Shown here in pieces: positions 12,001 to 15,000 of a DNA stretch of 35,746 bases; the stretch's first letter is position 1; the number at the start of each line of letters is the position of its first letter. This DNA is from Candidatus Nanohalobium sp. (lineage in GTDB: Archaea; Nanohalarchaeota; Nanosalinia; Nanosalinales; Nanosalinaceae). The stretch spans positions 246-35,991 of the forward strand of contig JBDGTY010000043.1 of assembly GCA_042216335.1 (NCBI GenBank). The letters run 5' to 3'. Made by a program: the position numbers.

Positions 12001-15000
12001 CTGAAGAACGCCGTTTGAAGACACCACTTCAGTACTGTCGGGGAACTTCGAATCACGGACCCTGACCTCTCCACCAGCTTCCTCAATAATTAGTTTGGCC
12101 GCGGCCCAGTCCCACTCCGTCACAATAGCATTTACTGCAAAATCAGCTTCTCCAGCCGCGACCCTGCACATCTCCAGCGCACAGCTACCGAGCTGTCGAT
12201 GAACTGCATCCCTCCTGGCCAGCTCTTCAAGTATATCCATCTCGGCCTCAAGCTCTCCCTCGTAGATATCGAACAACGTCAGGAAGAACAGAGAATCCTC
12301 GATACTGTCGTGGCTGCTGACCGTGATTGCTCCAGCATCAGACAGTTTTCCCGAATCAAGAGCATAGGCCCCGGCATCCTTCAAAGCAAAGTAACTCCTA
12401 TCAAGAGAAAATTCCGGAGAGTAGACAAGGCCGACAACTACTTCCCCGTCAACCTTCAACGCGATGGAAACACAGTAATGGCTGAAACCGTGGTCAAAGT
12501 TGAACGTGCCGTCTACCGGGTCAATCACCCAGACACGGTCCTCGCCATCGGGCCTCAAGTTCTGCTCCTCTCCCAGGAAACCGTCATCCGGAAACTCTTC
12601 CGAGATAATTTCAACGATCTTTTCCTGCGACCTTCTGTCCGCCTCAGTCACCTTGCTGCCATCCTCTTTACTGCCGGTTTCAAAGCCGTTCTCCGCATAG
12701 TCTTCGATCATATCTCCGGCATCTTCCGCGGCCCTGAAAGCAGTTCTGAGTTCACGCAAGTACTCCGAGCCTTCGAATTTAGCCACTGACATGAGAAAAA
12801 TTTCCGATTTTAGAAGTGTTAAAACCAGTGGGTTCCCGGAGGTGGACGGCTCTATAGGACTGCCCGGGCGCCGGTTTCGGATCCGCCACCCTCCAAACAT
12901 GCGACTGACTGCTTAGAGCTGCTCCCGTCAGGGCCTGACCCGGTTCACAGCCCGCCGCATCCTGGAGGACGGATCGTCAAACAACCAGACAACCCGGAGA
13001 CAGCGACCCCACAGAGACCGCCGCCCAACCGGTTGACGGCTCCAGCATAACGAGGAATTTTCCGGAAAGAGGCGACCCCAAACCGCCCAACCTACCCATG
13101 TTCACGATAAGTGGTTGGAAAGGTTAAAAACCGGATGGATAGAAACAACTGCCTTTACAAGACCGAGAAATATTAAAATTCAGCTCCAATTAATCAGTAT
13201 GGCTATCAGCTTGGACCTTCCAAGTGAGCTAAAAAATATTGAGGAGGTTGACAACGGCAGGTATAAGTCGAATTCAGAGTTTCTACGTGATGCTATCCGG
13301 TTGAAGCTTATCGAGTCGGACCTTGAACTCCGTGTAATCTCGGATAATACTAGAGAAAAATTGATGGAGCGTGTCAGTAAGGCCAAAGATTCCGAGAAGT
13401 ATACTGTAGAAGAAGCAAGGGAAGAACTAGGGCTGGAATAAATTAAGGGAACGACAGATTTCTGATGCTGACTATAAAACCTCCAGTAATTCCTGCTATA
13501 AGAGGCCGATAATAGTCTGCAGCCGCTTTTGCCAGATTTTCCTTACCCATGGAAAATCAAAGCTCTATCTCCATTCCTTTCTCGGCTACCTTGAATCCTC
13601 TTTCCTCTACTTCTTTTCTTTCTTCAGATTCTTCCCTTAGTGCCGGGTTGGTGTGGTTGAGGTGTGTGAAGATTATTTCTGTATCGTAGTCCTCCATCAT
13701 GTCCATACTTTGTTTGATTGGCGGGTGTGGAACTTCTTCGAAGCGGTCAATCTCGTCCCGGGTCCAGAAGCATCCGTCCACTATGGCTATATCCGCTTCT
13801 CTGACGGATTTCAGAGCATCTTCGTTCCATTTGTCGAGGTCCGACACATAGTAGAGTTTCTTGTCTTCCCCGTGAATCATGAACGAGTATGCGTCAGCGT
13901 AGTCCCCTCTGTGGACTACTTCTCTTGTCTCAACGCTGCCACCCTGTAATTCCACCTTCTCCTTCCGTTCGACTACGTTAACTACTATGTTTTCCCTGTC
14001 GATCAGAAGTCTGTATGGATCGTTTTTCATCATGAAATTCTCTATGCCTTCAGAGCAGTAGACTGGCACTCCATCAGCTTCCATGGAGGATTCTCCCAAA
14101 TAAATCAGCCCTGTGATATCCCCAAGGTGGTTGTCAGCCACAAATATTCCATCCAGAAAGTCCCCAATAATTTGTTCTCTTATATCCGGACTCGGGCCTA
14201 TAAGGTACCTTGCCGAATTATCATCTTCACCATCCTTCAACATCATAGAATGAACATATTTCTTTCTTTCAGGGTTATTTCTCGCTGATTCACACAGATC
14301 ACACTCACATCCTAGGTGCGGTACCCCACCGTCTTGGACGCTTCCAAGTATCTCGGCTTTCAAAATAAGATCCCCTTTAAGCCGTTAACGCTGATTCAAT
14401 AATTTAAACCTCCGCCTTTATCCATGACGAGTGTTTAAAACTTCAGTGCTCAAAACGTTTCTTACAGGTCTTCGCCGGAGTGGCAGAGGAGTTATGCGTC
14501 CGCCTGCAGTCGCAGATCGCAGATTTGCTGGCTACAAGAAAATCTCCGATTTTCGGCATTAAGCGGATTACCAGGGTGCAAATCCCTGCTCCGGCTTTTC
14601 TGAATCAGTTACAGTATGTTGTGGATTGTATTGTTGTGAATCTGTTGGGCTGTAAAGAAGATGCCGTTGCCATCCTTTGACTCGAATATTTTCTTGAATC
14701 TCTTTTTGCCAAATATGCCTAGTCCGACTATGACATCATCTCTTAGTATAGTTTCTGGTAAATTGAATTTTTCTATATTCTCATTTTCAACCACTGAATC
14801 AATCTCGTCCTGTCTTAAACGCAAGGTATCTGAGTCTATGAAAATCGCTTCTTTATCCCCCATATCAAGCTTGAGTAGATCATCATACGAATCGCTTAGA
14901 GTATCAAAAACGTTCTCTGGCTCTACATCAGATAAGGCGAGGTTTGTTCTGACATCTTCGAGCATCGACCGGTATTTTTCAGGTCCTATGTCGAAGTTTT

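Follow-up and report, generated by a model that had tools for sequence, protein, structure and literature searches.

The window analysed here, a 35,746-nt stretch of a Candidatus Nanohalobium genome (G000), carries on its reverse strand at 12827..13102 a gene of ~272-276 nt for a signal recognition particle (SRP) RNA without helix 6 (G000:C38:13072-13347 (-) in contig coordinates). The gene was recognized by matches to two RNA families. It scored higher on the bacterial family RF01854 (Bacteria_large_SRP; 12828-13099, 89.9 bits, E 1.6e-12), whose cut-off of 60 it passed, than on the archaeal family RF01857 (84.7 bits, E 7.4e-20), where it fell below the gathering cut-off of 96.5. Among named loci, it is most similar to records titled Nanohaloarchaea (78% over 282 nt), which agrees with the phylum to which the genome had been assigned. 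A TATA-like box, read from the sequence, lies ~25 nt upstream of the RNA (13122..13130, (-)), and a loose TATA-like pattern is found upstream at 54 of 58 loci of the phylum in a count made without a shuffle control; a sigma-70 scan returned nothing relevant. Nanohaloarchaeal SRP RNA has been listed among highly expressed non-coding RNAs (PMC10266531), in a paper whose main text does not contain the word 'helix'. An inositol monophosphatase family gene lies just downstream (11962-12795, (-)), a short ORF of ~80 aa without a Pfam family lies upstream (13199-13441, (+)), and the window also holds a 5S rRNA (17382-17496, (-)).

As the folding z-score of the whole RNA was only -1.5, we used covariation as the test instead. 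The Alu domain, made up of the 5' strand of helix 1 and helices 2-4, occupies 13038..13099 (this and all following parts are on the (-) strand); its helices comprise 17 pairs that are 98.4% paired, nine of them changed on both sides, and none of 500 shuffles reached an equally high value. Within it, the loops of helices 3 and 4 form a pseudoknot (13051..13080; 13076-13080 with 13051-13055) of five pairs, 95.9% paired, three of which are invariant and one changed on both sides. Where a UGUNR turn is expected, the G000 sequence reads UCUUU (13066-13070); 35 of 59 RNAs of the phylum have the canonical turn, and its sequence varies elsewhere too. The 5e motif of helix 5 was placed at 12967..12972 by alignments and by its spacing to helix 8. 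Covariation and folding define a continuous rod of helix 5 and helix 8 (12899..12960; 12947-12960 paired with 12899-12912), which encloses helix 8 with its SRP54-binding internal loops (12913-12946). The site of the missing helix 6 lies at 12958..12959, where ~41 nt are absent without a remnant branch, in a gap block common to G104, G074 and G084.

An earlier note on this DNA had proposed that the RNA lost helix 6 while keeping the Alu domain and helix 8, and the gap block, the covarying junction and the retained Alu helices bear this out. Against six helix-6-bearing RNAs, the G000 RNA showed a single block of gaps, 41-42 columns wide, lying between the 5e motif and helix 8, whereas its 3' strand aligned gap-free to helix-6 archaea; no helix 6 with a GNAR loop was found in G000. 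In alignments to RF01857, the block of 40 model positions facing no bases was recovered in G104 and G074, and G084 has one base there. The former junction is spanned by 14 pairs, which are 93.3% paired in the 34 RNAs used for this set, out of 60 in the phylum, and 12 of which change on both sides. Their covariation of 0.814 compares with 0.234 in shuffles (0 of 500 as high) and with at most 0.195 for slid partners.

Across the phylum, an SRP RNA was found in 60 of 70 genomes, the same count as before, including 28 of 28 high-quality ones; the ten genomes without a match are all less than 90% complete, and 53 of the 70 pass the RF01854 cut-off. The phylum-wide loss of helix 6 had earlier been read mostly from RNA length. 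We measured how far the 5e motif lies from helix 8, counting one RNA copy per genome, and found 27-29 nt in all 60 genomes with an RNA, compared with 67-71 nt where helix 6 is present, so that the absence of helix 6 no longer rests on length. Two SRP RNA copies each were seen in G055:C7, G061:C3 and G129:C8/C9, either as a duplication or as an assembly artefact.

The tip of helix 8 is also unusual, a trait overlooked in the earlier note. Instead of GGAA, the apical loop in the window is UGAC (12927..12930), of the URRC type. Counted over the 60 RNAs of the phylum, this loop is UGAC in 50, UGGC in seven and a UGAU variant in three; URRC thus accounts for 57 of 60, none has GRRA, and a fixed non-GGAA tip is common to all nanohaloarchaea. 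We considered whether URRC is a consequence of helix-6 loss, which is unsupported: 44 of 52 other DPANN RNAs keep GRRA, and UGAC occurs in two of 27 helix-6 RNAs. These two (G091, L143; G135, L170) combine UGAC with an intact helix 6 and SRP19. Loop adenosines are described as clamping helix 6 to helix 8 in the SRP RNAs of archaea and eukaryotes (PMC2905702), with the helix-8 adenosine at the fourth loop position (PMC4605306); the two UGAC-bearing RNAs indicate that this fourth-position adenosine is not universal in helix-6 archaea either. In one DPANN group, the apical stem of helix 8 has two pairs rather than three (G079, G102, G123, G144, G165 and G186; L185, L202, L200, L195, L176 and L198, respectively).

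We next turn to SRP19, whose absence throughout the phylum had been claimed together with the loss of the helix it binds. None of the 70 genomes exceeded the PF01922 cut-off, and three weak matches (E 0.07-0.25) gained no support from a 50-sequence profile. An SRP19 that has diverged beyond detection might nevertheless persist, or its role might have passed to another protein: fast evolution is typical of DPANN proteins, the SRP19 of Sulfolobus escapes the Pfam control, and the G000 assembly, at 96% completeness, contains 2733 masked bases. However, a 30-row profile that recovered all 20 left-out divergent SRP19 proteins (E 2.6e-16 or better) found none in G000, where unfiltered profile searches of 19172 stop-to-stop frames gave best E values of 1.2 and 1.4. 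A 35-row profile split 201 genomes cleanly, with 68 at 59.9 bits or above and nothing from there down to 16.4; two genomes of the phylum gave noise-level matches (E 0.04-0.05). In 11 of 50 loci, rpS8e adjoins SRP19; no SRP19 was found at 11 rpS8e loci of SRP19-negative genomes. The YlxM family, sought as a possible substitute, was found in none of five genomes but in the Bacillus control. The absence of SRP19 from DPANN and Hadarchaeota is in fact already published, in supplementary tables: in Table S3 of PMC8204110, family fam01153 reaches 80-100% in other archaea but stands at 0 in five DPANN groups, and in Supplementary Data 25 of PMC13473441, the entry for arCOG01217 is 0 for Hadarchaeota as well as for 12 DPANN groups, although 'SRP' does not occur in the main text of either paper. 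With the binding helix gone as well, we consider a hidden or substituted SRP19 very unlikely.

SRP54 and FtsY are present, as previously reported. An SRP54 M domain was found in 65 of 70 genomes of the phylum, and G000 encodes SRP54 and FtsY on contig C42, both of archaeal type, the FtsY without an acidic domain. This FtsY has a lysine 13 residues past its DTAGR motif, which may correspond to E. coli Lys399. Lys399 of E. coli FtsY has been named as a tetraloop contact (PMC4091067).

The architecture had been called Bacillus-type, which fits the shape only. A transfer in which the large SRP RNA of a bacterium replaced the archaeal one could account for the higher score of G000 on RF01854, and URRC loops are known from bacteria (PMC4091067). 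We nonetheless find such a transfer scarcely credible, as most other helix-6-less DPANN RNAs pass the RF01857 cut-off, with scores of up to 172 bits, and RF01857 was the best family at 17 of 20 loci scanned outside the phylum, 12 of them helix-6-less. Moreover, the 3' strand that is gap-free against helix-6 archaea shows a 2-nt gap against RF01854, SRP54 is archaeal, and URRC also occurs in the two helix-6 archaea mentioned above. Thus, no bacterial descent was found for either Ffh or the RNA, the latter as judged from scores and register only.

The deletion holds across Nanohaloarchaeota, yet it was also present in every other DPANN lineage sampled and is therefore not a nanohaloarchaeal trait. 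Among 131 archaea outside the phylum, 128 had an SRP RNA. SRP19 and helix 6 were both present in 66 of these (helix 6 by sequence in 18 and by length of 306-384 nt in 48) and both absent in 55 (47 by spacing, five by eye, three by length); seven lacked SRP19 but kept helix 6, and none had SRP19 without helix 6. As the sampled genomes are related, these counts are not independent cases. For 52 of the helix-6-less RNAs, the spacing between the 5e motif and helix 8 was 27-30 nt in 46, 34 nt in one and read by eye in five. The gap was identical in the four DPANN lineages aligned (G000, G104, G074 and G084), and none of ~280 RNAs contained a remnant of the branch.

A short-spacing pattern run over a collection of named genomes returned at least 119 loci, and of these 115 fit the helix-6-less profile. 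Titles among the matches listed include Woesearchaeota (37), Nanoarchaeia, Aenigmatarchaeota, Iainarchaeum, Altiarchaeota/Altiarchaeales, Undinarchaeota, Micrarchaeota, Parvarchaeota, Pacearchaeota and nanohaloarchaea; record titles are deposit labels, some of which are wrong. No SRP19 was found in the 50 genomes searched from among these matches. Of the 115 loci, 21 are titled 'Methanosarcinales', but the six that were placed by SRP54 fall among Woesearchaeota/Nanoarchaeia, and SRP19 was absent from the 12 searched out of these 21. Records titled Chloroflexi or Binatia were likewise rejected as helix-6-less bacteria, as they carry archaeal rpS8e. The mislabelled-looking records (21 loci within L218-L328, and L263, L281 and L314), titled Methanosarcinales, Chloroflexi, Euryarchaeota or Binatia, resemble DPANN where tested. 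A 2.6-kb contig titled 'bacterium' (L238) is also among the short-spacing matches.

RNA length alone proved unsuitable as a test for helix 6. The RNA of G160 (L179) measures 267 nt and has helix 6, with SRP19 in the genome; its shortening lies 5' of the 5e motif. Conversely, the RNAs of G119 (L197), G186 (L198) and G343 (L449:199-507) reach 300-310 nt without helix 6 and carry an extra hairpin of ~22-36 nt in the 3' strand. This hairpin, opposite the lost junction, is a mirror-image branch that different DPANN groups gained, apparently independently; an automatic screen of 115 loci for such 3' insertions was noisy, and none was seen among the 25 flagged. Altiarchaeota also belong to the helix-6-less set. 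In the class of G107, which groups with a record titled Altiarchaeales, all 54 RNAs found in 61 genomes lack helix 6, 53 of them (267-284 nt) as judged by length and one of 309 nt by sequence, its extra length being a 3'-side hairpin. SRP19 was not found in five more genomes of this class, four of which measure 2.3-2.5 Mb. Small genome size is thus not the explanation for the loss.

The two losses had been described as joint. In the phylum, helix 6 is indeed gone and SRP19 was not found, but the two losses are separable, as SRP19 can be missing where helix 6 is kept, whereas the reverse was never seen. In the class of G109, for which SRP54 gives Hadarchaeales as the nearest named relatives, SRP19 was found in none of 65 genomes, four of which were rechecked with a wider profile beside a positive control. 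The 54 RNAs of these Hadarchaeia (304-346 nt; genomes of 0.6-2.2 Mb) keep helix 6, with a GNAR loop in all 25 that could be parsed (seven of 32 were unparsed). SRP19 was not found in G070 and G158 either, which also keep helix 6 and group with the SRP19-bearing G094 and G116 in the SRP54 tree. The helix 6 of G158 (L137:1501-1816) has a GNAR loop that has turned AU-rich, a possible decay intermediate outside DPANN. A clade of DPANN and Hadarchaeia, as a single loss of SRP19 would need, was rejected on SRP54 (p-AU 0.0009; one gene, with the grouping picked after the trees had been seen), and the SRP19 losses therefore look separate.

SRP54 trees unite the helix-6-less genomes in a single clade. 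With FastTree, this clade holds 63 of 91 rows at a support of 97 (two rows failed extraction), and in a quick IQ-TREE C20 tree it holds 26 of 48 rows at an SH-aLRT of 95. The RNA tree was unresolved and required eight changes of helix-6 state. Our interpretation is that a functional SRP probably lost helix 6 from its RNA, and SRP19 from the genome, once, in the common ancestor of DPANN, Altiarchaeota included. Parallel losses in separate genome-reduced lineages, which would leave the trait silent on DPANN monophyly, appear quite improbable. SRP19 has been lost at least twice more, in Hadarchaeia and in G070 with G158, the rejected clade of DPANN and Hadarchaeia fits repeated events, and rod length would make excisions converge: as it would favour precise excision, equal spacing is no proof of a single event. 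However, no genome that keeps helix 6 falls within the helix-6-less clade, helix 6 was never lost in 66 SRP19-bearing or 54 Hadarchaeia RNAs, and helix 6 persists in Hadarchaeia of 0.6-2.2 Mb but is missing from Altiarchaeota of up to 2.5 Mb.

The direction of change has to be considered separately. If DPANN branched first, they might simply have retained the long SRP RNA that they share with Bacillus-type bacteria as the ancestral form, and the ancestor of eukaryotes and all other archaea would later have gained helix 6 and SRP19. A single gain would be enough, the ~280 RNAs contain no branch remnant, and Altiarchaeota, which are not reduced, lack helix 6 as well. Outgroup rooting also favours a tree with a DPANN root (PMC13473441), and an SRP54 tree with this root, keeping the helix-6 archaea together, was 1.58 log units better and not rejected (p-AU 0.554), so that SRP54 alone gives no direction. 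Against such a primary absence, unconstrained SRP54 trees nest DPANN among helix-6 archaea, better-fitting reconciliation models place the root on or in Euryarchaeota (PMC13473441), and SRP19 can evidently be lost, as in Hadarchaeia, G070 and G158. With the preferred root of that study, SRP19 is assigned to the last archaeal ancestor with a probability of 1 and to the DPANN ancestor with one of 0.3 (PMC13473441, Supplementary Data 25). We therefore regard primary absence as rather unlikely and favour secondary loss.

Conserved motifs and covariation suggest that the RNA would still bind SRP54 and serve protein targeting. Without helix 6 packed on helix 8, SRP54 may bind helix 8 directly, much as in bacteria, and such direct loading would make the assembly factor SRP19 dispensable. 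Haloferax tolerates deletion of SRP19, a protein that archaeal RNA does not require for binding SRP54 (PMC2905702). Only the side branch would have been removed, the rod from the Alu domain to helix 8 keeping its length, so that the Alu domain and SRP54 could still reach their ribosomal sites. SRP19 would have been lost first or together with helix 6, and helix 6 never first. Nanohaloarchaeota may then have fixed the URRC tip, without the fourth-position A that clamps to helix 6 elsewhere; in UGAC, this A is absent and presumably not needed.

We found no published report of helix-6 loss in archaea, although subscription papers on SRP RNA families and supplements to bioRxiv and other papers may bear on it; three supplements of PMC7414124 gave no match. 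Our data correct the view of helix 6 as an arm universal in archaea and eukaryotes, since it is missing from a whole superphylum, and they provide natural test cases for the role of helix 6: most archaea have it together with SRP19, Hadarchaeia have it alone and DPANN lack it. A shared deletion is also a rare character, of a kind that cannot arise as an artefact of long branches or composition. It places Nanohaloarchaeota and Altiarchaeota, both of disputed placement (bioRxiv 10.64898/2026.06.17.729505; PMC13473441), with DPANN. If primary absence were true after all, the RNA would instead be a rare structural trait in favour of rooting Archaea on DPANN, and the module of helix 6 and SRP19 a later addition uniting other archaea and eukaryotes. 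There is also a risk for annotation, as such RNAs may be filed as bacterial: that of G000 scores below the cut-off for the archaeal family but above that for the bacterial one.

Compared with the canonical archaeal SRP (RF01857), the particle described here is alike in helix 1, Alu helices 2-4, the loop-loop pairing, the 5e motif, the helix-8 loops, the register of the 3' strand and its archaeal SRP54 and FtsY. It differs in lacking helix 6, SRP19 and the adenosine clamp between helices 6 and 8, and in its URRC tip. With the bacterial large SRP RNA of the Bacillus type (RF01854), it shares the Alu domain and the unbranched rod of helices 5 and 8, but its SRP54 is archaeal and there are small differences in register. 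The Bacillus SRP also binds HBsu and YlxM, the latter family being absent from all five genomes searched. Hadarchaeia likewise lack SRP19, yet they keep helix 6. SRP19 was listed for all archaeal subgroups then known, and the helix 6-8 clamp was expected in all archaeal and eukaryotic SRP RNAs (PMC2905702, including Table 2). The permuted circular SRP RNA of Thermoproteus is another non-canonical archaeal SRP RNA, but it keeps helix 6 and binds SRP19 (PMC4731332), whereas the RNA described here is collinear.
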